From assembly GCA_963693055.1 (NCBI GenBank), contig OY843751.1, positions 3,840,001 to 3,904,000 on the forward strand: DNA of 64,000 nt, written 5' to 3'. The notes beneath the pieces were generated by a model. That model saw only the letters and a program-made list of their open reading frames with translations, ran no database searches and was not told the DNA's origin. The translations under genes were made by a program, and so were the position numbers. Positions 26,596 to 46,812 of the stretch are shown here, piece by piece; the stretch's first letter is position 1, and each line of letters starts with the position of its first letter. This DNA comes from a bacterium. GTDB taxonomy: Bacteria; Zhuqueibacterota; Zhuqueibacteria; Residuimicrobiales; Krinioviventaceae.

Positions 26596-28026
26596 CAGGA
26601 CACCCCCGAAAAATCACAAATCATATTACTGTAAGTAATAAAAAATAATGGAGATAGAAGCAAAAAAAGCTTGTAAAAATAAAAAAAGGTTGCCTCATTA
26701 TAGTTGACAGACCATAATATAGGAGGCAACCCATGGACATCACAAAACGAGTCCAAGTAAAACTTAATCAAGTGACAGCGAAATATCAAGCAGAATTCAA
26801 CCGACCGGACTATAAATTTATCAGAGACATGCATTATGGGATACTTTGCTCCGGGCATGTACATTTAAATAAAATCGCATCAACCCTAAAGGAAGAGACG
26901 AGCCTAAAAAAGACAACAGAACGAATGTCTAGCCACTTGGGCCGCCCAGGATTTGACAGAGAATTAACCATTAGTCATCTGAAAATAAACAAAAGAAGGT
27001 TTTCGGATTCGAAATACTTGATAGCAGATATGAGTGATATAATCAAGCCTTATGCGGAAAAGATGGAAGGGCTTGATCGTGTTTATGATGGTAGTACCAA
27101 AGAACTAGGGAATGGATACTGGCAACTGAATATCATTGGAGTTGATAAAACCGGTACATCCATCATGCCGCTGGTGAGTACGCTTTGGGCGACGGATCAG
27201 GAAGAAGGCAAAGGTATTTCAGAGAACAAGAAAATCCTCGAATCCGTGGACACGATTCGAGAACATATTCATGGAGAACAGATAGTTGTTTATGATCGCG
27301 GAGGTGATCGTAGCAAACTGATGAACAAATGGATTAAGCAAAAACAACACTTTATAATACGGCAAACCGGGTACCGGGATATATTTGTTCAAGGAGTAAA
27401 GAAGAATTTAAAGAAATATGCCGAAAAAATCCGTCCCAGTACTGAAATTACCGTGCAGAAAAAACGCCGGAACAGGCTGATAAAGCGATGTTTTCAATGC
27501 GGTGCCCGTAAGGTATATCTGCCAAAGCAGTATGGGGATGGCCCAATGAACACCGGATTATGGCTGATTTCAGTCACTGAACCTGGCAAAGGCAAAAGCT
27601 GGTTTTTAAGCTTTATACCGGCAGAGACTGAACGTGAGGCCATAGAGATTACCATGGAAGGCTATGGTTACCGGTGGAAAATTGAAGAGGTACATCGTCA
27701 AATAAAAAATGATTATCATCTTGAAGACATTTGCCTTAAAAGGTATGTTGCGCTAAAAAATTTTAATGCCCTGTTTTGGAATGTCATGAGTTTTATCTAT
27801 TGTCATTTGGATAATATTTGTTTACATATTTTAGATCAATCTCAAGCTCCGTTGGTGTATAGAAGGAAATTAAACGAGTTTATTGGGTTTGTTTATTATA
27901 AACTGGCAAAGGCATTAAGGATCATTTTACCCAATATAAAGCTCAGAAAATTAAAGTGTAATAATCATGCCGGTGACAAAAATCAATTATTTTTGGCCCT
28001 CGAATAAAAAAATCGGGGGTACCCTG
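26596..28026 (+). mobile_element. IS4-family insertion sequence, 1431 bp
   Basis: TIRs CAGGACACCCCCGA / CAGGGTACCCCCGA (12/14); 10-bp direct repeat GATTTGTTTT at 26586-26595 and 28027-28036. Confidence 0.9.
26733..28007 (+). CDS. IS4-family DDE transposase
   Basis: IADMS (D), YDRGG (D), YGYRWKIEEVHRQIK (YREK motif). Confidence 0.9.
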   Translation: MDITKRVQVKLNQVTAKYQAEFNRPDYKFIRDMHYGILCSGHVHLNKIASTLKEETSLKKTTERMSSHLGRPGFDRELTISHLKINKRRFSDSKYLIADMSDIIKPYAEKMEGLDRVYDGSTKELGNGYWQLNIIGVDKTGTSIMPLVSTLWATDQEEGKGISENKKILESVDTIREHIHGEQIVVYDRGGDRSKLMNKWIKQKQHFIIRQTGYRDIFVQGVKKNLKKYAEKIRPSTEITVQKKRRNRLIKRCFQCGARKVYLPKQYGDGPMNTGLWLISVTEPGKGKSWFLSFIPAETEREAIEITMEGYGYRWKIEEVHRQIKNDYHLEDICLKRYVALKNFNALFWNVMSFIYCHLDNICLHILDQSQAPLVYRRKLNEFIGFVYYKLAKALRIILPNIKLRKLKCNNHAGDKNQLFLALE

Positions 28027-30347: not shown

Positions 30348-32957
30348 ATGAGAAAATGGTACGTGACATTCTGTATTCATCTTTGCATCTTGCTCAATTC
30401 TTTTGCTGCCACTCTAACCGTACCCGATGATTTGGAAACCATTCAAAGCGCCATTGATTCATCCAGTATTGGGGATACAATAGTGGTTAAACCGGGGAAT
30501 TATTATGAAAATCTGGCAATAATCAATAAAAATATAAAACTCTTTTCATTGTACGAGATAGACGGTGATACAGCCCATATCAGCAATACAATCATTGATG
30601 GGGGAAATACAAATTCAGTAATTTCCATCCAATCCGGGATCGATACTACTTGTATAATATCGGGTTTGACTATTACAAATGGATATCACTGGAGCGCGGG
30701 TGCCGGTATCAATCTGGTGAATGCCAGCCCTGTTATTAGAAATTGTATTTTGACAAACAATGGTGATGATTCTGACACCAACCCAACAGGCATTGGTGGA
30801 ATATCTTGTTATCTGGCGAATCCTCAAATTCAATCTCTGAAAATCACTCAAAATTACGGATCAGGGCTTACGGCAGTATACTCGAAACCTATAGTAACAG
30901 ATTGCATCATCTCTAAAAATGTGGGCAGTGGAATAAATTTGTCAGGAACTTCACAACTTACATGCTCAAAAACAATTATTGCAAATAACAAGGGCTTGAG
31001 AGGTGGAGGGATTTACAGTACAAATTCAACAATGAGGCTGGACAATACTACAATTTGCAATAATGCAGCCAGTTATGGTGGAGGTATGTTTTTCACAGAG
31101 GATGCAAACATTGAATCATCAAACAATGTCAATATTTATCTCAATAAAGCCTATTCCGATGGTAATGATCTGTTAGTATGGCAGTCCTCAATTTACGATA
31201 CAGTTATTACCCCGATTGAAATCAATATTGATACTTTTACAGTCAAAAATCCGGATGATTACTTTATAGCACCCAATTATGGATTTACTTTAAATATTAA
31301 AAATGAAAAAGTAGAAAAAGTCAATCATGACCTGTATGTTTCTCCAAATGGCAGCAATATAAATTCAGGACAAGATGCAGACCATGCATTAAAAAGTTTG
31401 GAATTCGCTCTGTTAAAAACCAATGCAGATAGCCTGAATCCGCAAACCATTTATTTGTCATCAGGAAAATACAGCAGTTCAACAACAGGAGAACAATTTC
31501 CTGTCAGATTACGCTCATATGTAACACTTGAAGGAGAATCAGATTCTACAACAATTCTGGATATTGAAAACCAATGGGAAACTGGAATTGTAGCTATTAA
31601 TTGTGATTCCATCAGTATCTCGAATATGACAGTGCAAAATGGCTTTGAACATGGGGGAATATCTATTAAAGGATCATCTATCAAGATGAACAATCTACTT
31701 GTTCAAAACAATACTGGTCATACAGGTGGCGGCATTTATTTTGTAAACAGCCATCTGGAGGTTAAAGATTTAGTATTGATGAATAATAGTAGAGTCGTTA
31801 CCGGCTGCGGAGGTATAAAAATAGATAATTGTACCGGGTATTTAAAGAACATTTTGTTTGATTCAAATGTTGGCGGTAACCAAAATGAAGAAGGTGGCGG
31901 CATGGCAGTCTTTAATTCTGCTATGAAAATGGACAGTCTTGAATTCATCAATAACATTAGCGGCACCAATGGTGGTGGTATTTATATGTATGATTCAGAT
32001 ATTTCTATAAGCAATTCAACATTTGATAATAATTCTGCCCTTTATGGCGGCGGTATAGCTTGCGAAAACACCAGACTTTTTCTTACAAATTCACGGATTA
32101 AAAACAACCACGCAGAAAACGCAGGTGGCGGGTTGGTTTGCTATCAATCGAGCCCCGAGCTGAATCGGGTTACTTTTGAAAACAATACGACTGCAAATTG
32201 GGGTGCCGCAATCAGTTGTTCTGAAAATTCAAGCCCTGTACTGGCTCATGTAACAACCCTTCACAACACGGCAGACCAATATGGCGGGGGTATTTTCTGC
32301 TGGCGGGGTTCAAATCCTGTTTTGGTTAATTCCATATTATGGGATGATCTACCTCAGCCTGTTGCAATAATGCATGATAAAGTGGCATGCTCCCTTACCG
32401 TGTCTCATTCATTGATTGATAACGGTTATGAAGGACTACTACTGAATGATAACGACATCATAAACTGGTTGGATGGCAACATTGTGCAAGATCCATTATT
32501 TTCACAATCTGCAATCCTTACAAAACACTCTCCCTGTATTGATGCCGGTACAACAGAGGTTATTTTGGAATCAGACACATTGTGGATTGACAATAGCCAT
32601 GACTATTGGGGTAAAGCTCCTGATATGGGTGCTATAGAGTTTGATCCGCTAACAGACGTCTCCCCTGTTCTTGCACCAGAAACATTTTCGGTACATTTGT
32701 CCAGTTACCCCAATCCTTTTAATTCATCAACAATGATTGAATTAGGAATTGATAAACAACAGGATTTGGATGTATCCATATACAACATGCTTGGCCAAAA
32801 AGTCAAACAATTGGTCAATAAAACGATGGATGCGGGAGAATATAAATTTCTCTGGGATGGTAAAAATAATTACGGAAATGATGCAAGCAGTGGTATATAT
32901 ATGGTAGTGTTTACAGGTAATATCAAAAAAAATATAAAAATTCTTTATCTTAAATAG
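30348..32957 (+). CDS. Secreted parallel beta-helix protein (GGGI/POMP-like repeats, DUF1565-like) with FlgD-Ig/T9SS-type CTD
   Basis: TIQSAID, repeated NNxAxxGGGI, YVSPNG, SPCIDAG, PDMGA, YPNPFN. Confidence 0.85.
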   Translation: MRKWYVTFCIHLCILLNSFAATLTVPDDLETIQSAIDSSSIGDTIVVKPGNYYENLAIINKNIKLFSLYEIDGDTAHISNTIIDGGNTNSVISIQSGIDTTCIISGLTITNGYHWSAGAGINLVNASPVIRNCILTNNGDDSDTNPTGIGGISCYLANPQIQSLKITQNYGSGLTAVYSKPIVTDCIISKNVGSGINLSGTSQLTCSKTIIANNKGLRGGGIYSTNSTMRLDNTTICNNAASYGGGMFFTEDANIESSNNVNIYLNKAYSDGNDLLVWQSSIYDTVITPIEINIDTFTVKNPDDYFIAPNYGFTLNIKNEKVEKVNHDLYVSPNGSNINSGQDADHALKSLEFALLKTNADSLNPQTIYLSSGKYSSSTTGEQFPVRLRSYVTLEGESDSTTILDIENQWETGIVAINCDSISISNMTVQNGFEHGGISIKGSSIKMNNLLVQNNTGHTGGGIYFVNSHLEVKDLVLMNNSRVVTGCGGIKIDNCTGYLKNILFDSNVGGNQNEEGGGMAVFNSAMKMDSLEFINNISGTNGGGIYMYDSDISISNSTFDNNSALYGGGIACENTRLFLTNSRIKNNHAENAGGGLVCYQSSPELNRVTFENNTTANWGAAISCSENSSPVLAHVTTLHNTADQYGGGIFCWRGSNPVLVNSILWDDLPQPVAIMHDKVACSLTVSHSLIDNGYEGLLLNDNDIINWLDGNIVQDPLFSQSAILTKHSPCIDAGTTEVILESDTLWIDNSHDYWGKAPDMGAIEFDPLTDVSPVLAPETFSVHLSSYPNPFNSSTMIELGIDKQQDLDVSIYNMLGQKVKQLVNKTMDAGEYKFLWDGKNNYGNDASSGIYMVVFTGNIKKNIKILYLK

Positions 32958-36760: not shown

Positions 36761-39700
36761 ATGAGTAGTATTCGTGTTCGTCTTCCCTTTTTGTCTTTAC
36801 TTTTTGTCCTTTTGTCACAATCTCTTTTTTCACAAAATCTTGGTCTAGATCCTGATCCTAACCAAATCAATGCGGTGCGTTTTGACCCATCCTATTATTA
36901 TAATTCGGATCTTGAAATCAAAGATATGGCCCATTCCCTGCTGCAAACCTGGAAAGCAAACGGAATTAATACTGTATTTTACAAAGTATATGATCCCGCT
37001 TATGGTGCGAAATATGTTACAGACTATGAATTTAACATTATGGCAGATTATGGCAGACAGGATCTTTTATCATATATCATTGATGCAGCCCGGGAAACGG
37101 GTGACATGCAAATTATTGCATGGATACCCGCATTTCTACACAAATCCGCTTGGGAAAACAATCCTGATTGGCGGGTAAAAAACAAAGATGGAAGCGATTA
37201 CCAACCCAATCCTGAAGACTATTTTCTATGCCCTGCAAACGCTCAGGTCCGTAGCTGGTGGATGGGTTTTATTAAAGATATTCTAAACAATTATCCTGCT
37301 CTGGATGGTGTTGATATTGCAGAGCCTATTGTTAAATGGAATGATCATCGCTGCTATGGCGAACAATGTACTCTATCTGATGATCCCCTATATACTTCAA
37401 AAGCGCTGATAAAAACCTTGAATGAATCTGTTGAACTGATCAACAGCTATGATAAAATATCCTGCATCACCTCTGTTGTTACAGCAAATCGAAATGGCAG
37501 TTTGTTATCAATTAATGAGCAACAATTAAAGTCCGGATTCCATCTGGATGGTGTGCTGGATTATAAATCCCCGCCAAACTGGATCAATCTGGAATTAATG
37601 TGGCAGCAATGGGCAGATTACTATAATGCTGCTAATATTTTTACTCCTGAATGGACCCAAAAAGCCGCTAAAACAGTGGTCCAATTTGTAGATGACCGTG
37701 CAACTTTGATAGCGCATCTTGAACAAACCTCTTTTGGACCTATAAAAGTTGACGCAGAGCAGCTGAATAATGCTATACAATACAGCAAAAAGGCCGGAAT
37801 TGAACATATAGATATTTACGATACCCATTTACTGGATGAAATGAACGCATGGGCAGTAATAAAACCGTCCTTGGAATATGTACCTACAAAGAATATTCTG
37901 GTATTGACGGATCCCAATGGTGAAAATGACGCAAAACAAATTGCCAGCCTTCTCAGCCATTTCAAAACCAATATTGAATTTATCCAACTGGGCAATGATA
38001 CTCCATTACCTGCTATGGACTCTATGCAAACCGTATTTTATGTAGGTATTGATGAAAAATTTCAGATTCCCGTACCGGTACTTGATGCGTTGGAAAGCTT
38101 TACCGGAGATCTGTGCTGGATCAATTACGGTGTTGATCAATATATTAAAAACATTGGAATTGAAAAGACCGGTTTTTATGTAAATGCCATTCATCATGAT
38201 TCATTATATCAATCAGTGCCTTTTAAAGGATATGACCTTCCCCGATTTGATCCTTCATATGTTGAAACCACTATTACTGACAGCAGCAAATGTCGTGTAT
38301 TGGTTGAAATGCAAGGCAATAAAGGCAGCCTCCCTTATGTGATTAAAAGTAGTAATCTCTGGTATTATGCGGATCTGCCAACCGCGTTTGTAACCGAAGG
38401 CGGCAGACATATTGTTATTAGTGATATGCTGCATGACATTGTACGTGAAGACCATAAACCCAAAAAATTGGCACTGATCAGAATTGAAGATATTCATCCC
38501 ATTTCAGACATAAAAGCATTGGAACAGGTGACCGGGTATTTAAAATCTCAGGATGCGCCCTATAGCATTGGTATTGTTCCCTACTATCTGGATCCTGAAT
38601 CTAATTTGACAGCTACATTGAATGACATGCCGGATTTTGTTGATTTTGTGCACAAGACCATGAAATCGGGCGCCACTATAGTTATGCATGGTTCAACCCA
38701 TCAGTTTAGAGGTGAGACCACTGCAGATTATGAATTCTGGGATGGTATGACTGAAGAAGTGCTATTCTCAGACTCGAAGGAATATGTAAGGCAAAAGATG
38801 CTGTCAGGGTTGCAGGCATTTAAAGAAAATGGGATATACCCAATCATTTGGGAAACGCCTCATTATGCCGCGTCACAAATGGATTATGGCGTCATTAATA
38901 ATTTTTTCAATACCGCATATGAACGCAGACAAACAGTAGACAAACACGGTTCCGATCAACTCTTGCCATATATGATTTATAATCATACTGCTGGCAACAA
39001 AATCATCCCGGAAAATTTGGGGTATATCCCTCTTGACGATCCGAATTCAGCCCCCATGCTTCAGGCTGCCGAACATAATCTGGCAATTCGGGACGGTGTA
39101 GCCAGTTTCTTTTTCCATACATTTGTTGATCATAATGCTTTAAAAACCATTGTGCCCAGCTTGAAAAAAATGGGTTACACTTTTACATCGCCACGCTATA
39201 CATCATCCAAAGTAATAGCGCCGGAATACCAGGCACTAACTGGTGATGGTTCTGTAAACCTTACACTAGATGGACAGTATTACCATGAATTTTACCTGGA
39301 TATCAAGGGCAAGAAAAAGAAAGAACTCTATTCTGACTCTACCCTGACTGAAACTGTTAGTAAAGATGTCAAGGTTCCCATGGGTTGGATTTTTATTGCA
39401 GAAAAACTGGATGATAAACCAAAAGGATTTTTTGCAAGAGCAGTCAGCACAATAACTCCCAATGTGCCCGAACTTTCTAAAACTATCTTTAATACTAACT
39501 CGAAATCATTAATTGATGAAGGTTCTTTTCCCATCAGTGCCGGAATTATTGTTGATTCCACCGCAACAGGCCCTGTGGGTATCTCACAAAACAATCTGAT
39601 TAAATCATTACAGGTTGTTGGCATTGATGTACAGATTCTACCCTTTGAAAACCTGATAGAAATCCCCAATGATATAAACATACTGGTTGTTCCCAAGGCA

Positions 39701-41731
39701 GCAGCAGACAGATTGACAGAGCAACAAAATTTATTTATCTCTTATGCTTTGCAGAATGGCATGAATGTCGTTTTTGAAAAGCACTCCAATATTACCAATA
39801 ACATAGGCATTATTGAGCTCGAGCAGGAAATCGTAATAGACAATGTGTATGACGAATATTATCCTGGTGTAAACATGACCTGGAAAACACCGGACACTCT
39901 GCGCGCCTTTGATGTTGATATTGATTATGTATCTTATTACAGCATTCAGGATTCTGGTGATCCTGTTGTAATTGGTGGTGAATATGGCGATGGTAAATAT
40001 CTGTTTATGGGCACTTTATTTGATCCCATTACCGATTATGGATATGCTCGTTTCCCCTACTTTATCGATCTTTTAAAGAGACAGTTTAATCTGGTTCCCA
40101 CGGTACGTAGAAACACTGTAGAAATCTATTTTGAACCGGGTGACCGTGAAGATATCAGCATTGAAGAGTTGGTTAAAATGTGGCGTAACTTTGGTGTTCG
40201 CCGGATCTATGTTTCAACCTGGCATTTTTATGAAGAATATACCTATGATTACGAACGACTCATAGAACTTGCTCACCAGAACGCCATGCTGGTTTACGCA
40301 TGGCTTGAAATTCCACATGTCAGTCAAAAATTTTGGGATAAACACCCGGAATGGAGAGAAATAACCGCAACCGGTAAAGAAGCACAAATCGACTGGCGTC
40401 GAAATATGGCGGTAGATTTGCCAGAATGTCGGCAAGCCATTTTTGATGAATTACAAAAAGCCCTTTTGGAATATGACTGGGATGGAATAAATTTTGCCGA
40501 ACTCTATTATGAATCTCCGGAAGGATTCAAATCACCTCAAAATCTGACTCCCATGAACGATTATGTTCGTAATATGTACTCACAGAAATATGGTTACGAT
40601 CCCAAAAACTTGTTTGCTACCGCATCCCCCTATTACTGGAAGCGTAATAAAAAAGCTGTAGATCAGTTCCAGCAATTCAGAGAAGACAGAATCTTTTATC
40701 TGCATGGTGAATTTTTGAAATTCATGTACGAACTACGGCGCCAAAATGGTCGTGAATGGGAAATTCTGGTTACAACCCTTGAAAATATTTTTTCACCGGA
40801 AATTGGCAAAGCAACCGCAACCAACACCAAACGAATTCTGCAATGGGTAGATGAATATCCCTTTACCATTCAAATTGAAGATCCCCAGCCTTTGTGGGCA
40901 CTGGGTCCTGATCGCTATACAAAAATATTGGATGAATACTCGTCTCTCGATTATCATAAAAACATGATTCTGGATATCAATGTGGTACCTTGGCGTGATA
41001 AAAATATTACTCTGGCGCCAACAAGACAACCAACAGGTCTGGAACTGTTTCAACTGGCTAATGCAGCATCAGCAAAGAATACACGTGTAGCAATCTATTC
41101 TGAAGCCAGTTTATATGAAGTTGATTTCCCCATGCTAACATACGTGTTTGCCAATAAATCACGGGAAAGTATAAACAATAATGAATGGCTGATTGAAACA
41201 CCTTATACAGTCAATACCCTGCTTGACAGGGATGCTCATAAAGATATCATGTTGAATGGTGTGATCTGGCCAGCTTATTATCAGGGACGTGCAATCATTC
41301 CCGCGGGATTGCACAAAATTCAACCGATTTCACGCTATAACGGATTTATAAAAAAGTTCAAATCAGATGTGCGCCTGGTAGAACTGTCAGGTGAATTAAT
41401 TGATGCGCAGTCCATTTCACGTGGTATCGAAATCACCTATCGCTCAGATGCGCCCAATATTCTTGTACTATCAGAAAAACCTCTTGCCATCATAATCAAT
41501 GAAGAAGAGTTGAACATTCCCTCCACCAAAGGAGAGCTGGGCTATTCTCTACGCTTACCGGCAGGTGAACATACGGTAACCATCTATACGCAAACAAATG
41601 GTACTCAAACGCTCAAATACACCAGTGTCGTTATTTCAGGTATGATTGTAATACTGGGAATTTTGGCAGGTTTATTATTATCAACTTTATATCTGCAAAA
41701 TACAATTCGTCGTAAACGCGCTTCAATCTAA
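36761..41731 (+). CDS. Multidomain polysaccharide-modifying protein: GH-like TIM barrel + DUF2334 (YdaL-like) deacetylase + second GH-like barrel, C-terminal TM anchor
   Basis: Signal peptide; GINTVF...IIAWI...LDGVDIAE and VYAWL...WDGINFAE barrels; LIRIEDIHP, MHGSTH, WETPHY, SFFFH deacetylase motifs; TM + RRKR tail. Confidence 0.75.
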   Translation: MSSIRVRLPFLSLLFVLLSQSLFSQNLGLDPDPNQINAVRFDPSYYYNSDLEIKDMAHSLLQTWKANGINTVFYKVYDPAYGAKYVTDYEFNIMADYGRQDLLSYIIDAARETGDMQIIAWIPAFLHKSAWENNPDWRVKNKDGSDYQPNPEDYFLCPANAQVRSWWMGFIKDILNNYPALDGVDIAEPIVKWNDHRCYGEQCTLSDDPLYTSKALIKTLNESVELINSYDKISCITSVVTANRNGSLLSINEQQLKSGFHLDGVLDYKSPPNWINLELMWQQWADYYNAANIFTPEWTQKAAKTVVQFVDDRATLIAHLEQTSFGPIKVDAEQLNNAIQYSKKAGIEHIDIYDTHLLDEMNAWAVIKPSLEYVPTKNILVLTDPNGENDAKQIASLLSHFKTNIEFIQLGNDTPLPAMDSMQTVFYVGIDEKFQIPVPVLDALESFTGDLCWINYGVDQYIKNIGIEKTGFYVNAIHHDSLYQSVPFKGYDLPRFDPSYVETTITDSSKCRVLVEMQGNKGSLPYVIKSSNLWYYADLPTAFVTEGGRHIVISDMLHDIVREDHKPKKLALIRIEDIHPISDIKALEQVTGYLKSQDAPYSIGIVPYYLDPESNLTATLNDMPDFVDFVHKTMKSGATIVMHGSTHQFRGETTADYEFWDGMTEEVLFSDSKEYVRQKMLSGLQAFKENGIYPIIWETPHYAASQMDYGVINNFFNTAYERRQTVDKHGSDQLLPYMIYNHTAGNKIIPENLGYIPLDDPNSAPMLQAAEHNLAIRDGVASFFFHTFVDHNALKTIVPSLKKMGYTFTSPRYTSSKVIAPEYQALTGDGSVNLTLDGQYYHEFYLDIKGKKKKELYSDSTLTETVSKDVKVPMGWIFIAEKLDDKPKGFFARAVSTITPNVPELSKTIFNTNSKSLIDEGSFPISAGIIVDSTATGPVGISQNNLIKSLQVVGIDVQILPFENLIEIPNDINILVVPKAAADRLTEQQNLFISYALQNGMNVVFEKHSNITNNIGIIELEQEIVIDNVYDEYYPGVNMTWKTPDTLRAFDVDIDYVSYYSIQDSGDPVVIGGEYGDGKYLFMGTLFDPITDYGYARFPYFIDLLKRQFNLVPTVRRNTVEIYFEPGDREDISIEELVKMWRNFGVRRIYVSTWHFYEEYTYDYERLIELAHQNAMLVYAWLEIPHVSQKFWDKHPEWREITATGKEAQIDWRRNMAVDLPECRQAIFDELQKALLEYDWDGINFAELYYESPEGFKSPQNLTPMNDYVRNMYSQKYGYDPKNLFATASPYYWKRNKKAVDQFQQFREDRIFYLHGEFLKFMYELRRQNGREWEILVTTLENIFSPEIGKATATNTKRILQWVDEYPFTIQIEDPQPLWALGPDRYTKILDEYSSLDYHKNMILDINVVPWRDKNITLAPTRQPTGLELFQLANAASAKNTRVAIYSEASLYEVDFPMLTYVFANKSRESINNNEWLIETPYTVNTLLDRDAHKDIMLNGVIWPAYYQGRAIIPAGLHKIQPISRYNGFIKKFKSDVRLVELSGELIDAQSISRGIEITYRSDAPNILVLSEKPLAIIINEEELNIPSTKGELGYSLRLPAGEHTVTIYTQTNGTQTLKYTSVVISGMIVILGILAGLLLSTLYLQNTIRRKRASI

Positions 41732-41748
41732 AAACAGCAGGAGTTATT

Positions 41749-43026
41749 TTGCCTTTTTCGCACACATCCCTTGATATACTCTTTTTATTGAGTGTTTCCA
41801 TAACGTGGGCTATGATTCTTTATCAGTTATTCCTGACCATTGCAGGTAACAGATACAGGTACGACATTCAAAAAACTGAAAAAGAGTTGGAACAAATCCC
41901 GGTTAATCCCAAACCGGTATCTATCATGATCCCTGCTCATAATGAAGAACTGGTTATCGAGAAAACCATAGAACGCATCCAGAGCCTGGATTATCCTCCG
42001 GAAATGCTTCAGGTAGTAGTAATCAATGACGCATCACAAGACAACACAGCAGCACTGGTAGAGGCCCTGGCTGAAAAGGACAAACGCATCAAACTGGTTA
42101 CCCTGGAAGGAGACCGGGGACATGGTAAAGCGTATGCCCTGAATATAGGGCTGGAGCATTGCAGCCATGATCTCATTACAATTTATGACGCAGATAATAA
42201 TCCTTCAAAAGATTCTTTGAAAATTCTGGTTTCCCATCTCAGTCAGGATGATGGGCTAGCAGCGGTAATTGGTAAATTCAGGACCATCAATCGCGCAAAA
42301 AACAGTTTGACCCGTTTTATCAATATCGAAACCATGGCATTTCAATGGATTCTGCAAGCAGGCCGCTACAAGACCTCACGTATTGCAATTCTGCCGGGGA
42401 CCAATTATGTTGTTCGTAAATCTGTTATTAAAGAATGCGGCGGCTGGGACCCCAAAGCAATTACTGAAGATTCCGAAATCAGTGTAAGAATTTACAGATT
42501 GGGATACAAGATTAAATTTGTTCCCACCAGTGTAACCTGGGAACAGGAACCCGAAAAAATATCCACCTGGATCAGACAACGCACCCGCTGGGTACGCGGC
42601 AATAATTACGTATTGCAAAAATTTGCTCCCGATACATTTAAATTTAAAAGCCGTTTTTTATTAATAGAGTTCTTTTATTTATTTGCTCTGTACTACCTAT
42701 TTCTGGCTGCAATTGTCATTTCACACATGTTGTTCCTCCTCAGCGCTATAGGAGTAGTGGCGCTAAATGTTCCGGGGCCTTATTTTGGGGTATGGGTTTC
42801 TGCCTACATCTTGTTTGTTCTGGAAATTGTGGTCGTTTTATCTTATGAACATGAAGATTCAGGCATCAATTTATTATACACCCTGCTCATGTATTTTACA
42901 TATTGCCAATTATGGTTATATGTAGTATTCAAGGCCCTCTCGCTCGATTTCAGACGTCACAAAGTTGGCGAATGGGACAAAACCGAACGATTTGAGGTAA
43001 ACGTACCGAGCGAGCAGGAAGCCTGA
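41749..43026 (+). CDS. Processive GT2 polysaccharide synthase, YdaM/PssC-like
   Basis: PAHNEE, DAD, TED, RQRTRW motifs; LTRFINIET, PGTN, WEQEPE and LMYFTY match my recollection of B. subtilis YdaM. Confidence 0.9.
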   Translation: MPFSHTSLDILFLLSVSITWAMILYQLFLTIAGNRYRYDIQKTEKELEQIPVNPKPVSIMIPAHNEELVIEKTIERIQSLDYPPEMLQVVVINDASQDNTAALVEALAEKDKRIKLVTLEGDRGHGKAYALNIGLEHCSHDLITIYDADNNPSKDSLKILVSHLSQDDGLAAVIGKFRTINRAKNSLTRFINIETMAFQWILQAGRYKTSRIAILPGTNYVVRKSVIKECGGWDPKAITEDSEISVRIYRLGYKIKFVPTSVTWEQEPEKISTWIRQRTRWVRGNNYVLQKFAPDTFKFKSRFLLIEFFYLFALYYLFLAAIVISHMLFLLSAIGVVALNVPGPYFGVWVSAYILFVLEIVVVLSYEHEDSGINLLYTLLMYFTYCQLWLYVVFKALSLDFRRHKVGEWDKTERFEVNVPSEQEA

Positions 43027-43871
43027 TGAAATTCACGTTTATTAAAAATACATTAGCTTATTGCATCCTTTTACTAATTTCAAGTACATCTGTAATGGCA
43101 CTACCGCAACTAGATCCCAAATTCTTTGCGGAAGCTTATGATGAAACCGTAAATTTTGAACGTGAAGGTAACAATACCATTACCGCGGGTCATCTCATTC
43201 AAGGCGTAAAATTTCCTGAACTGGGTCTGGTTAAATCCGCCGAATTTTATTTTAAACAGCGTTATGGCAGCGATGCCAACAAAGATTACTGGAACAATCG
43301 TGGTGAATTGATCATGGGAACACGCATTCGGTTTTTCTCCAAAATCTATGTTGCCGTTTTTTATGAATATATTCATGGCTGGTATATGGGTGATTCCAAT
43401 TCCACCAATCCCAATCCATATGGCGATTCTTATGAAGATATGCGATACGGATTTATTTTTTGGCAGGGTCTGGATAACGAGTATAAAAAGAAATGGAAAA
43501 CCAACATTCCCCTCAGTTTTTGGGATGAGATTTATGCGGATGCGGTCAGATACAAACGGGATGATAACAACTTTGCATCTTATACCAATATTCGCGCGGG
43601 TGAACGTCTGGCAAGAGTTGGTAAAATGGCATTTGATGTTTACGGCGCTTTCTATTATGCCTGGGATACTAATAAAGATTATTGGAACAATAAATTTGAA
43701 TACGGACTGGGTTTTAGACTCAAACCCTGGTCTGATCTGGATTTAAGCTTGTTTTATGAAACGTTGAATGGACAATATATCGAACGTAATGGGCGGTATC
43801 CAATAACCAATGGTCTAAACTACTCTGATCATCGGTTTGGGATACTTTTTTGGTATGGACTAGGATTTTAA
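43026..43871 (+). CDS. Probable outer-membrane beta-barrel with twofold internal repeat
   Basis: Signal peptide, aromatic-rich strands, NKDYWNN twice 131 aa apart, ends WYGLGF. Confidence 0.7.
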   Translation: MKFTFIKNTLAYCILLLISSTSVMALPQLDPKFFAEAYDETVNFEREGNNTITAGHLIQGVKFPELGLVKSAEFYFKQRYGSDANKDYWNNRGELIMGTRIRFFSKIYVAVFYEYIHGWYMGDSNSTNPNPYGDSYEDMRYGFIFWQGLDNEYKKKWKTNIPLSFWDEIYADAVRYKRDDNNFASYTNIRAGERLARVGKMAFDVYGAFYYAWDTNKDYWNNKFEYGLGFRLKPWSDLDLSLFYETLNGQYIERNGRYPITNGLNYSDHRFGILFWYGLGF

Positions 43872-43894
43872 AAGGCATTACAAGGAGTTTAAAA

Positions 43895-45673
43895 ATGAAA
43901 AAAATGCTACTCTTGCTCATTTTATTAATATCAAATCAATACATATTTGCCCAAGACCAACTCTGGGAGTTTTCAGCAGATTGGTGGGTCAATTCAATTT
44001 ATCCTATAAATGATGTAAATGGTAACAGCCTGCAGGATGTTCTGGTAGGTGCTTCTGATAACCGGTTGTATTGTATTGAAGGTGGTGGCGATACCAAAGG
44101 CACAATCATATGGTCCACTACTTTTACCGGCGATGTCTGGGCAACAGTATCTATTCTGGATGTAAACAATGACGGTATTGATGATGCCATTGCCGGCGCT
44201 GCTGATAATACGGTTTATTGTATATCCGGTGACCCCACATACGAGGGTGCAGAGATTTGGTCATATACAATTGGTGGTGACGCTTTGTGTGTTGATGTTA
44301 CTAACGATGTTGATTATGATGGTATTCAGGATTGTGTGGTAGGCAGTAATGATGATTATGTCTACTGTCTTTCAGGTGCTGATGGCAGTCTGATCTGGAG
44401 CTACAAAACAGGTAGTACCGTATTTGATGTTACACGTGCGGGCGATGTTGACAATGACGGTTATGATGACATTTTTGCAGTATCTGTAGATGATAATACC
44501 TACTGCCTTTCCGGCAAAATGAATATACCGGGACAACGAGTAATATGGCAAACCACAACGGGCGATGTCCGCTCGGTCGCCATGATCTCTGATCTGAACA
44601 AAGATGGTGAAAACGAATGTCTGGCTGGTGGGCTAAATGACAAAGTTACATGTATGTCTGGTACGGATGGAGCAATTATCTGGACGTTTACTGCAGGTGC
44701 ATCCATTCACAGTATTGCCAGCACTGACGATGCAAACAGTGATGGTAAGCACGATGTTTTGGCCGGTTCCGCCGATAACAAAGTTTACATGATTTCAGGA
44801 CACGATGGTTCTACCATTTGGTACAAACAATATAATGGAGATGTTTGGGATGTTGCAGCCATTACTGATGTTAATAATGACAATGTTCAGGATTGCTTGC
44901 TGGGTACGGGTAATAACGATATCGCTGTTATCAGTGGCGCTTCAAGTGGAACAGGTGATGTGATTTGGTCAGACACATTTCTGGGTGACGTTTTGACCGT
45001 AGCGTCATTGAGAGATGTTACCGGTAACGGAATTATTGAAGTATTGGGCGGTTCAAATGACAGCCGGGTCCTTGCCTTTGAAGGGAACTCTACAATCACT
45101 CCGGTTGAATTGGCAAGCTTTACCGCAATCGTTAATGATAATACAGTAGAACTGTATTGGGAAACCGCAACCGAACATAATAATTATGGTTACAAGATAC
45201 AACGTTCAACGGACAATAAAACCTTTGACACAATTGGTTTTGTTAATGGAAATGGTACTAGTAATATAAACGAAACCTATGAATATATTGATGAAAATGT
45301 TTGGCCTAACCAATATTATTACCGATTGCTTCAAATAGATTATGGCGGTGCTGTTTCAACCTTGGATACGCTGCATGTAAATGTTAATGTCCCCGAGACC
45401 TTTGCAATACAAAACAATTATCCCAATCCCTTTAATGCGGGAACGGTAATTTCATACTCGCTGCCAAATCCGGGACATGTGGAAATCAAGATCCATAATA
45501 TTCGTGGTGAATATATAACAACCCTTTATGAAGGTCAACAATATGCCGGTTACCATAATATTCACTGGTATGGTAAGAATAACAATGGTATATTAGTCTC
45601 TAGCGGTATATATCTATGCACTATTAAAAATGGTATTCAGAGCCAAACGATTCAAATGTCATATATAAAATAA
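43895..45673 (+). CDS. Secreted FG-GAP/PQQ-like beta-propeller with FlgD-Ig/T9SS-type CTD
   Basis: Repeated DVNxDGxxD...GSxD...SGxDG..IW; PVELASF; NNYPNPFN; GGAG SD before ATG 43895. Confidence 0.85.
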   Translation: MKKMLLLLILLISNQYIFAQDQLWEFSADWWVNSIYPINDVNGNSLQDVLVGASDNRLYCIEGGGDTKGTIIWSTTFTGDVWATVSILDVNNDGIDDAIAGAADNTVYCISGDPTYEGAEIWSYTIGGDALCVDVTNDVDYDGIQDCVVGSNDDYVYCLSGADGSLIWSYKTGSTVFDVTRAGDVDNDGYDDIFAVSVDDNTYCLSGKMNIPGQRVIWQTTTGDVRSVAMISDLNKDGENECLAGGLNDKVTCMSGTDGAIIWTFTAGASIHSIASTDDANSDGKHDVLAGSADNKVYMISGHDGSTIWYKQYNGDVWDVAAITDVNNDNVQDCLLGTGNNDIAVISGASSGTGDVIWSDTFLGDVLTVASLRDVTGNGIIEVLGGSNDSRVLAFEGNSTITPVELASFTAIVNDNTVELYWETATEHNNYGYKIQRSTDNKTFDTIGFVNGNGTSNINETYEYIDENVWPNQYYYRLLQIDYGGAVSTLDTLHVNVNVPETFAIQNNYPNPFNAGTVISYSLPNPGHVEIKIHNIRGEYITTLYEGQQYAGYHNIHWYGKNNNGILVSSGIYLCTIKNGIQSQTIQMSYIK

Positions 45674-45690
45674 AAAAAGGATGTTTTTAT

Positions 45691-46812
45691 ATGAAGCCCA
45701 TTGATGTAATGGTCATTTTTGGTACACGCCCGGAAGCGATCAAAATGGCGCCGGTAATTTTAGAATTGCAAAAACGATCAACCATCAACACCATTACCGT
45801 TTCCACATCACAACATCGTGAAATGCTGGATCAGGTACTTGACATTTTTGACATAAAACCAGACTTTGATTTAAAGATCATGCAGCCGGGACAGACTCTG
45901 AACCAGATTGTTGAAAGATCTGTTAAAGGATTCAGGGATGTGTTTGCACAAACACGTCCCGATATTGTGCTTGTTCAGGGAGATACTACTACAGCGTTTA
46001 CCGGTGCATTGGCGGCCTTTTATGAACGGACCCCGGTTGGGCATATTGAAGCGGGGCTTCGCAGCGGTGACATGTACTCACCCTATCCGGAAGAGGCAAA
46101 TCGCAGAATGATCAGCGTAATTACTGAATTTAATTTTGCTCCAACACAAGGTAATTATGAATCCTTGGTACAGGAAGGCACAGAGCCAGAACGCATTCAT
46201 GTGACCGGCAATACGGTTATTGATGCTTTACACTATGTATTACAACACAAACCGGTTCAAGGATTCACGGAACAGTTTTGCAGCAATGGAGATAAACTGG
46301 TTCTGGTTACCGCGCACAGGCGGGAAAACTTTGGTGAACCTATTCGCAATATCTGTAAAGCTTTGATTGAATTAACTGAAACCCACAAAGACATCCAGAT
46401 AGTCTATCCGGTACATCTTAACAATAATATTCAAAAACCGGTACATGAATTACTGGATGGTAAAGAACGCATCCATTTGCTTGAACCGGTGGATTACAGA
46501 CATCTTACCACACTAATGAAAGACGCACATATCGTATTGACAGATTCGGGTGGACTACAGGAAGAAGCTCCCGCGCTGGGCAAACCGGTAGTGGTAATGC
46601 GCACTGAAACCGAACGCCCCGAAGCGGTACAAGCAGGAACCGCTGTATTGGTGGGAATCCAACAAGATGCCATTGTTAGTAAAATGACACAGCTTTTAAC
46701 AGACAATACCGCGTACCAGTCCATGGCCAAAGCCGTAAATCCCTATGGCGATGGAAAAGCGGCTCAGCGTATTGCCGATATTATTGAATCATCAGGATTA
46801 AATAAAAACTAA
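45691..46812 (+). CDS. wecB: UDP-N-acetylglucosamine 2-epimerase (non-hydrolysing)
   Basis: FGTRPEAIKMAP, QGDTTT, HIEAGLR, TAHRREN, TDSGGLQEE, NPYGDG. Confidence 0.95.
   Translation: MKPIDVMVIFGTRPEAIKMAPVILELQKRSTINTITVSTSQHREMLDQVLDIFDIKPDFDLKIMQPGQTLNQIVERSVKGFRDVFAQTRPDIVLVQGDTTTAFTGALAAFYERTPVGHIEAGLRSGDMYSPYPEEANRRMISVITEFNFAPTQGNYESLVQEGTEPERIHVTGNTVIDALHYVLQHKPVQGFTEQFCSNGDKLVLVTAHRRENFGEPIRNICKALIELTETHKDIQIVYPVHLNNNIQKPVHELLDGKERIHLLEPVDYRHLTTLMKDAHIVLTDSGGLQEEAPALGKPVVVMRTETERPEAVQAGTAVLVGIQQDAIVSKMTQLLTDNTAYQSMAKAVNPYGDGKAAQRIADIIESSGLNKN

Follow-up and report, generated by a model that had tools for sequence, protein, structure and literature searches.

A likely stripped-down relative of the Pss/Yda polysaccharide synthase machine in candidate division KSB1

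The window analysed here is a stretch of 64,000 nucleotides from the Krinioviventaceae assembly GCA_963693055.1 (contig OY843751.1, positions 3,840,001 to 3,904,000), and its subject is a run of five genes for a 1656-amino-acid (aa) fusion protein, a family 2 glycosyltransferase (GT2), a predicted outer-membrane barrel, a propeller protein and WecB. The locus is likely a stripped-down version of the known Pss/Yda machine, conserved in about 30 related uncultured bacteria. We think it rather probable that the operon serves to synthesise an N-acetylhexosamine polymer, to remove part of its acetyl groups and to export it, via a predicted inner-membrane core of two subunits, which would replace the multi-protein core of the Yda and Pss systems. 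More tentatively, it may be a minimal synthase of poly-N-acetylmannosamine (poly-ManNAc), free of a receptor for cyclic di-GMP (c-di-GMP) and consisting of the GT2 and one fused partner (anchor, deacetylase and two barrels), with a TPR-less porin and a type IX-secreted lectin added in candidate division KSB1; this full version is possible but on the doubtful side.

Synthase and fusion partner

By identity and tree placement, the GT2 belongs to the YdaM/PssC group of processive synthases, as a sequence-only reading made earlier on this DNA had supposed in calling it YdaM-like. The D, DxD, TED and QxxRW motifs are all intact, and the signature KFRTxN...RFINIET...FQW...G.R and WEQEP is common to the whole group. 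Identity was 43% to Listeria PssC (41-46% to Pss-type GT2s), 41-45% to nine Yda-type GT2s (the reference L104, whose proteins are named Bacillus pumilus in the sources, and eight other Yda-type loci), 36-37% to two Acinetobacter GT2s, and 21-25% to PgaC, BcsA, YaiP and NfrB (PgaC 25%; NfrB 21%, E 0.003). The best matches in the plasmid collection were Listeria PssC loci (43%), followed by Enterococcus and Acinetobacter. A sample of 401 genomes from the phylum of the Clostridium locus gave 22 matches, and the 19 of these loci that were fetched comprised nine yda-type, four pss-type and six other contexts. Twelve KSB1 GT2 rows grouped together (SH-aLRT 99), and with Bacteroidales and one Acidobacteriaceae copy they made up a diderm subclade (SH-aLRT 95-96); branches are short within the YdaM/PssC group and very long to the outgroups, and these quick trees with SH-aLRT support only do not fix the place of the diderm clade within the group. 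Apart from these, in some reduced Bacillota loci (L112-L117, L070) a GT2 of the group stands without DUF2334 or BcsB beside it; in part of them a GGDEF-like or a GH8-like gene is the sole companion, and one has wecB.

The partner of the synthase is organized as signal peptide, TIM barrel 1, YdaL-type/CE4 region, beta linker, alpha/beta domain, TIM barrel 2, beta domains and a transmembrane (TM) helix with a basic tail, and it is likely periplasmic and anchored at the C-terminus. It had been read before as a DUF2334 fusion; the YdaL-type domain stands, but two glycoside hydrolase (GH)-like barrels and the C-terminal TM anchor had been missed. Pfam places DUF2334 at aa 571-797 (E 3e-45) and also finds GHL10 (E 1e-9). 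The YdaL-like region is 30% identical to a YdaL-type protein over query residues 355-809 (E 1e-60), and its HH probability is 100 to YdaL and 97 to PssB (122 columns). Residues E576-D577, H643, H647, H701-Y702 and H786 are invariant (31/31 or 32/32 rows), and the fold matches of the DUF2334 domain are CE4 deacetylases (Z 19.2, root-mean-square deviation (rmsd) 2.7, 215 aligned). In the CE4 family, an Asp-His-His site holds the metal, and Asp and His act in catalysis. Judged by these residues, the CE4 domain of the fusion carries the deacetylase motif set intact.

The top fold match of TIM barrel 2 is the GH153 domain of PgaB (6au1; Z 23.7, rmsd 3.9, 315 aligned), which GH42 and Cwp19 trail by about 2 Z at most; Foldseek gave 4p7l (TMt 0.69) and had PelA among its top rows. 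TIM barrel 1, which is homologous to barrel 2 (HH probability 98.8), matches the C-terminal domain of E. coli PgaB by profile only (HH probability 59, E 9e-5), and is present in the KSB1 copies and absent from the Bacteroidota copies. At the motif position where PgaB has its catalytic Asp, which is D474 in Bordetella (PMC5933820), each barrel has a conserved Glu (E188, kept in 22/22; E1247). In an AlphaFold2 model of aa 560-1656 (pLDDT 85.9), the deacetylase is followed by the beta linker, the alpha/beta domain, one TIM barrel and the beta domains, and the chain closes with a long C-terminal helix. Searching the fusion sequence in the PDB gave weak matches or none, and the atlas neighbours of its C-terminal module are unnamed clusters. 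Because this module also occurs alone, without the TM helix, in Bacteroidales, Acidobacteriota and Clostridia, the fusion looks like a YdaL with a mobile hydrolase-like module inserted before the anchor and a second barrel added in KSB1.

The stand-alone module is of note in itself. This family of ~630-740 aa (alpha/beta domain, PgaB-like TIM barrel and beta domains; L005:8186-10372, L010:7881-10070, L013:5362-7320, L015:3694-5868) has almost no Pfam coverage and is a candidate for a new GH family. It is also present in genomes where the YdaM/PssC-group GT2 was not found, and in L013 it comes after a TPR-fused copy of the outer-membrane barrel.

A predicted complex joins the two proteins. The GT2 with fusion aa 1440-1656 scored 0.76 against 0.00 for the best of three controls (the mark for this score is reached by 116 of 157 solved pairs and 2 of 215 mismatched pairs), and the runs agreed in at least 97% of contacts, with a partner pLDDT of at least 73. 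The contacts set fusion residues ~1615-1651 against GT2 helices 6-34 and 340-370, the first and last TM helices, and centre on L1640, which is invariant in 29/29 rows. The prediction supports packing of the C-terminal TM helix on the synthase, speaking in favour of binding without demonstrating it.

On the other side of the ledger are the parts that the described machines have and this one lacks. That the run shows no gene for a BcsB-like protein or a YdaK/PssE receptor had been said before, and profile searches extend this to whole genomes. BcsB (PF03170) was found in 0/167 genomes of the phylum, with controls matching in E. coli and B. subtilis; PF03170 misses the BcsB-like protein of Acinetobacter, and a more sensitive profile was applied to the host genome alone. 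In the host genome, neither a custom YdaN profile nor one made from nine (alpha/alpha)6 hydrolases of the YdaJ/PssZ type matched anything. A full YdaK/PssE was found in 0/28 locus-bearing genomes (only the GGDEF part in 25, no match in 3); the control for this profile matched at full length, and the membrane part never matched in those genomes. Every described locus of the YdaM/PssC group has a BcsB-like subunit. Since a conserved lineage has neither receptor nor BcsB, the core can, we suggest, run as two proteins, which would make polymerisation, translocation and switching in this group easier to test in vitro.

The five open reading frames (ORFs) were all found on the + strand where the earlier reading had put them, separated by 17, -1, 23 and 17 bp in order (Table 1). 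An upstream kinase gene lies 280 bp before the operon start, and a convergent gene comes after the last gene of the run. A scan for promoters and terminators was uninformative, with counts not above shuffles (65 vs 54.9 and 10 vs 11.3), and a look through the listed sequencing runs turned up none with RNA. The host genome is one contig of 6.5 Mb with a single copy each of fusion and barrel.

Table 1. The five-gene run and the regions of the fusion protein, in window positions
Feature	Position	Strand	Description
Fusion	36761-41731	+	1656 aa; Pfam DUF2334 and GHL10
TIM barrel 1 of fusion	36833..37876	+	aa 25-372; GHL10/PgaB-like
YdaL-like region with CE4/DUF2334 deacetylase	37877..39205	+	aa 373-815
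TIM barrel 2 of fusion	40112..41155	+	aa 1118-1465; E1247 conserved 40/41
C-terminal helix with TM segment	41600..41728	+	aa ~1614-1655
GT2 synthase	41749-43026	+	425 aa, TTG start; D94, D147-x-D149, T239-E-D241, Q277-R-T-R-W281; about 3-4 TM helices; no additional domain in Pfam
Barrel	43026-43871	+	281 aa; no family in Pfam/NCBIfam
Propeller	43895-45673	+	592 aa from ATG with AGGAG site, preferred to the mechanical call (607 aa, TTG start at 43850)
wecB	45691-46812	+	373 aa; TIGR00236

Conservation and export parts

The relatives at 58-61% identity are of candidate division KSB1, to which the host likely belongs as well. Among 167 genomes of the phylum, 36 match the fusion (30 strongly, E<1e-30; 6 by weak domain matches) and 32 match the barrel profile (31 strongly). 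Both occur together in 29 of the 32 genomes with either; of the three exceptions, one is a contig that breaks off within the fusion gene, and the other two are genomes that are 84% and 70% complete. The genes had been expected to be conserved together, and the order fusion-GT2-barrel-propeller is indeed intact in 17/20 fetched loci, the other 3 being cut by contig ends. The counts show a stable cassette and are no statistical test, since kin are not independent.

Outside KSB1, the GT2 was found in 18/301 genomes from the phylum of the Bacteroidales locus, and in the 16 fetched Bacteroidota loci the fusion and GT2 are adjacent in 15 and wecB is adjacent in 5. In 5/16 of these loci an unrelated secreted protein of ~420-480 aa, ending in an aromatic residue, follows the GT2, and in 4 of those 5 a BNR/YCF48 propeller with a sorting tail then follows (L141:9177-14931, L148:9629-12970, L151:4081-7745 and L155:3848-7554 are loci of this ~420-aa protein). 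The layout of GT2, ~420-aa protein and propeller parallels that of KSB1 with unrelated parts. The ~420-aa protein is unrelated to the barrel and has no Pfam match, its host homologue lies beside a kinase/sigma-54 pair, and a strand-periodicity score, tried for it as an alternative porin, did not separate barrels from controls.

The 281-aa protein is predicted to be a 12-strand outer-membrane beta-barrel. Its AlphaFold2 model has 12 strands (pLDDT 85.5) and no TPR, and the top structural matches are all outer-membrane barrels, none of them specific, so the barrel call of the earlier reading holds. The profile counts 338 representatives; 60 were scanned, drawn from the best 150 with longer proteins favoured, and of these 46 have N-terminal TPRs, 12 have no family, 1 is joined to a GT2 fragment and 1 has a weak NfrA_C match below cut-off. 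The joined one (P0153, 605 aa) probably reflects adjacent genes that were merged by read-through or in assembly. The profile matches the barrel of the PGR type in Acinetobacter (E 5e-16; 7e-72 with a wider profile). In 251 genomes from the phylum of the Acidobacteriaceae locus it gave just two marginal matches, and it matched a Bryobacterales genome that was searched separately. Identification as NfrA, PgaA or YaiO was tried and rejected: the profile gives no match and fold searches return only generic barrels. Remote kinship to NfrA is possible, given the one close relative with the weak NfrA_C match. This unnamed family, mostly TPR-fused in the sample, is a candidate polysaccharide exit.

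The propeller is a secreted protein of the FG-GAP/PQQ type, with six DxDxDG-like loops and a FlgD/Por_Secre_tail C-terminal domain (TIGR04183, 28.4 bits, cut-off 23). About 216 type IX-like sorting domains, 11 PorV-family and 7 C25-family matches were counted in the host genome, and from its tail and these families the propeller is a candidate type IX cargo. Orthologues (E<1e-40) were found in 22/167 phylum genomes, a lower bound because the search missed copies visible in fetched loci, and 22/22 of these genomes hold the barrel. By this co-occurrence the propeller is a locus-specific orthologue tied to the cassette, and its place in the gene set, proposed before, is borne out. Some KSB1 loci (L059, L064, G012:C146) have two tandem propeller genes or propellers extended by PKD/InlB-B, which suggests a variable surface component.

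WecB, a non-hydrolysing UDP-GlcNAc 2-epimerase that makes UDP-ManNAc, had been named correctly: TIGR00236 scores 492 bits against a cut-off of 210. The gene comes directly after the propeller in 11/17 complete KSB1 loci (8 co-directional, 3 convergent). In four phyla wecB lies beside a YdaM/PssC-group GT2, and its place varies: it can follow the propeller, run convergent to the other genes or precede the fusion, and the Acinetobacter locus has it too.

Comparison with known systems

The locus works like the synthase-dependent Pss, Yda and PGR systems, and it fails each named system on defining subunits. Bacillus subtilis ydaJKLMN shares the GT2 (41-45%), the YdaL-type DUF2334 (HH probability 100) and a C-terminal TM anchor on the deacetylase, and in Yda/Pss as here the DUF2334 deacetylase gene is directly upstream of the GT2. 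The locus differs from ydaJKLMN in lacking YdaJ (GH8-like), YdaK and YdaN, in having two TIM barrels fused to the deacetylase, and in the added barrel, propeller and wecB. With pssA-E/PssZ of Listeria monocytogenes, it shares PssC (43%) and a CE4 domain related to PssB (HH probability 97); the product there is a ManNAc polymer (PMC13492145). In contrast to Listeria, it has no match to PssA, PssD or PssE and has diderm export parts, and its hydrolase-like parts are TIM barrels, whereas PssZ has the GH126 fold.

The nearest diderm cousin is the PGR locus of Acinetobacter, a phage receptor and proposed ManNAc glycan that needs BcsB and wecB homologues (PMC12507263). The earlier reading had put the locus forward as an undescribed diderm ManNAc synthase system; as a category this no longer stands, as PGR has been described. 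The match of pgrA-G to L069:5369-13289 (A. baumannii CP040041.1) is ours and was made on gene content and order rather than on locus tags; this locus has genes for a GT2, a BcsB-like protein, a DUF4434 protein and wecB, and none for a propeller like that of KSB1. Its GT2 is 39% identical to Listeria PssC, its BcsB-like protein matches YdaN/PssD (probability 100), and PgrA matches YdaK/PssE weakly (probability 51). In common with the window locus it has a GT2 of the same group (37%), WecB (44%), a barrel of the same family (E 5e-16) and a PgaB-like protein, PgrE (PMC12507263), recalling the PgaB-like barrels of the fusion. It keeps the BcsB-like PgrD, the degenerate GGDEF protein PgrA and TPRs on its barrel and has no recognisable CE4, whereas the window locus has the CE4 fusion, a TPR-less barrel and the propeller. 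No genes for PgrA, PgrB or PgrD are in the run, and their profiles reached a probability of at most 8 against five parts of the fusion.

With the PGR phage receptor assigned to the PssC/YdaM group, its backbone is predicted to be Pss-like. Listeria is not mentioned in the main text of PMC12507263, and in the open-access literature we found no paper that links PGR with PssC or YdaM, though the supplements of PMC12507263 might name further homologues. Nor did we find there an account of a receptor-less Pss/Yda variant, or one that joins DUF2334 with an exopolysaccharide.

Two further systems enter the comparison. E. coli NfrB-NfrA-YbcH with WecB, for the NGR glycan, a proposed ManNAc polymer (PMC8669469), works alike in combining a GT2, an outer-membrane barrel and WecB, but its GT2 is just 21% identical, the barrel profile has no NfrA match, and the window locus has no MshEN domain. 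PgaABCD (PgaB) and PelA likewise unite a deacetylase and a GH-like barrel in one periplasmic protein; however, the synthase group is another one (PgaC 25%), the barrel is not matched to PgaA, no PgaD-like gene was seen, and the fusion is anchored by a C-terminal TM helix. Interest in the locus is limited by the facts that each part has a known analogue, that a diderm cousin is published and that the host is uncultured. If the minimal synthase is real, Pss, Yda and PGR would be one synthase family across monoderms and diderms with this as the simplest system for reconstitution, and its porin and type IX lectin would couple polysaccharide export to protein secretion.

Proposed mechanism, alternatives and neighbouring features

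The scheme that we favour has six steps. WecB, whose enzyme family is clear, would supply UDP-ManNAc, and the GT2, with its family motifs, would polymerise and translocate the chain. The C-terminal helix of the fusion is predicted to dock on the GT2 at its first and last TM helices and would complete the channel, with no need of a BcsB-like protein. The CE4 domain would then strip some acetyl groups and the two PgaB-like barrels may bind, guide or clip the chain, so that a single protein, the fusion, would cover what YdaL, YdaJ/PssZ and PgrE do elsewhere. The predicted 12-strand barrel would pass the chain across the outer membrane, where the large fusion in the periplasm may stand in for the TPR bridge found in most of the barrel's relatives. 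Finally, and speculatively, the propeller may leave by a type IX-like route and bind or organise the polymer outside.

Several observations weigh against this scheme, some of them against its core and export steps. The complex score may echo likeness to the solved BcsA-BcsB complex. Taking the C-terminal region of the fusion as a BcsB/YdaN homologue had to be rejected, since its profile probability to YdaN/PssD is only 14, which is negligible. A C-terminal TM helix followed by a basic tail is found in YdaL and PssB too, so that the anchor could be an inheritance from YdaL and would not have to act in place of BcsB; nor is descent from BcsB claimed, because a TM helix closes nearly all of the YdaL, PssB, YdaN and PssD proteins. 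Both TIM barrels have Ala-Glu where PgaB has His-Asp, and hydrolase activity is therefore not assured. The best fold match of the outer-membrane barrel, a copper transporter (Z 12.8, rmsd 3.4, 189 aligned), is generic, and 12 strands make a narrow pore for a polymer. Those that concern control, sugar and export as such are taken up below with the alternatives to which they belong.

With regard to control, the synthase may still depend on c-di-GMP, with a receptor that escaped recognition, the GT2 or the genome's one REC-GGDEF cyclase as the link, or may be switched by the upstream kinases; this is an unlikely reading, yet of the three alternatives the one that holds up best, and it concerns control alone, being otherwise compatible with the favoured scheme. 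The two systems that have been studied need their receptors, YdaK and PssE (PMC5422440, PMC4125290). The host genome has a single GGDEF protein (REC-GGEEF, G000:C1:3089353-3090306) with an intact GGEEF motif, and unrelated two-component genes lie near many copies of the locus. Against this, no full-length YdaK/PssE match was found in the 28 genomes, so control is likely not via such a c-di-GMP receptor, and the GT2 has no extra Pfam domain. The two upstream histidine kinases, suggested before as controllers, were dropped as a conserved feature: among 37 loci scanned, orthologues (86% and 95%) lie beside the same-genus copy only, and other matches (23-34%) are to generic kinase domains. As a separate observation, one GGDEF protein in a genome of 6.5 Mb amounts to a very small c-di-GMP network.

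With regard to the sugar, the polymer of the locus most probably has a ManNAc backbone like that of Listeria Pss, by analogy with the sole chemically defined product of the GT2 group, a beta-1,4-ManNAc polymer with Gal branches for which PssC is required (PMC13492145). We regard as improbable, somewhat more so than c-di-GMP or kinase control, that the same export machine handles another sugar (GlcNAc-, GalNAc- or Gal-based) and that wecB is a frequent passenger or works in the reverse direction. It would fit with how widespread wecB is, above cut-off in 10/14 control genomes and with two more paralogues in the host, and with its not being adjacent in 5/17 complete KSB1 loci (in 1 more the contig ends first) and 11/16 Bacteroidota loci. 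The Yda polymer is reported to contain alpha-Gal and/or GalNAc and to be bound by a Gal/GalNAc lectin (PMC13274460), so the GT2 clade does not fix the sugar; moreover, in fold the GH barrel comes nearest to the PgaB domain that hydrolyses PNAG. However, the recurrence of wecB beside the group's GT2 in four phyla and in varied positions speaks for ManNAc, and the five KSB1 genomes with no adjacent wecB carry one elsewhere (5/5).

The remaining alternative concerns export. The barrel family is absent from the 16 fetched Bacteroidota loci, at least 6/16 of which show the pair of fusion and GT2 only, and these two-gene loci count against an obligatory porin; the barrel profile also found nothing in three genomes that hold the fusion and GT2 core. 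The barrel is small and lacks TPRs, and a Bryobacterales genome of unknown completeness has the barrel and a stand-alone GH module, with no YdaM/PssC-group GT2 found. Bacteroidota are known to have barrels that pair with type IX cargo encoded next to them. All this would suit a fusion and GT2 pair that makes a periplasmic or membrane-bound glycan or clipped oligomers, with barrel and propeller as an attached module such as a secretion or anchoring partner, but we consider this the least likely of the three, as the same barrel family is present in a propeller-less Acinetobacter locus whose glycan is a surface phage receptor (PMC12507263) and barrel and fusion keep company in nearly all KSB1 genomes with either (29/32).

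Two further features of the window lie upstream of the operon. An intact ORF for a DDE transposase (Pfam DDE_Tnp_1) is found at 26733-28007, 9 kb upstream, and positions 30348-32957 code for a beta-helix protein of 869 aa that ends in a type IX-like sorting tail.

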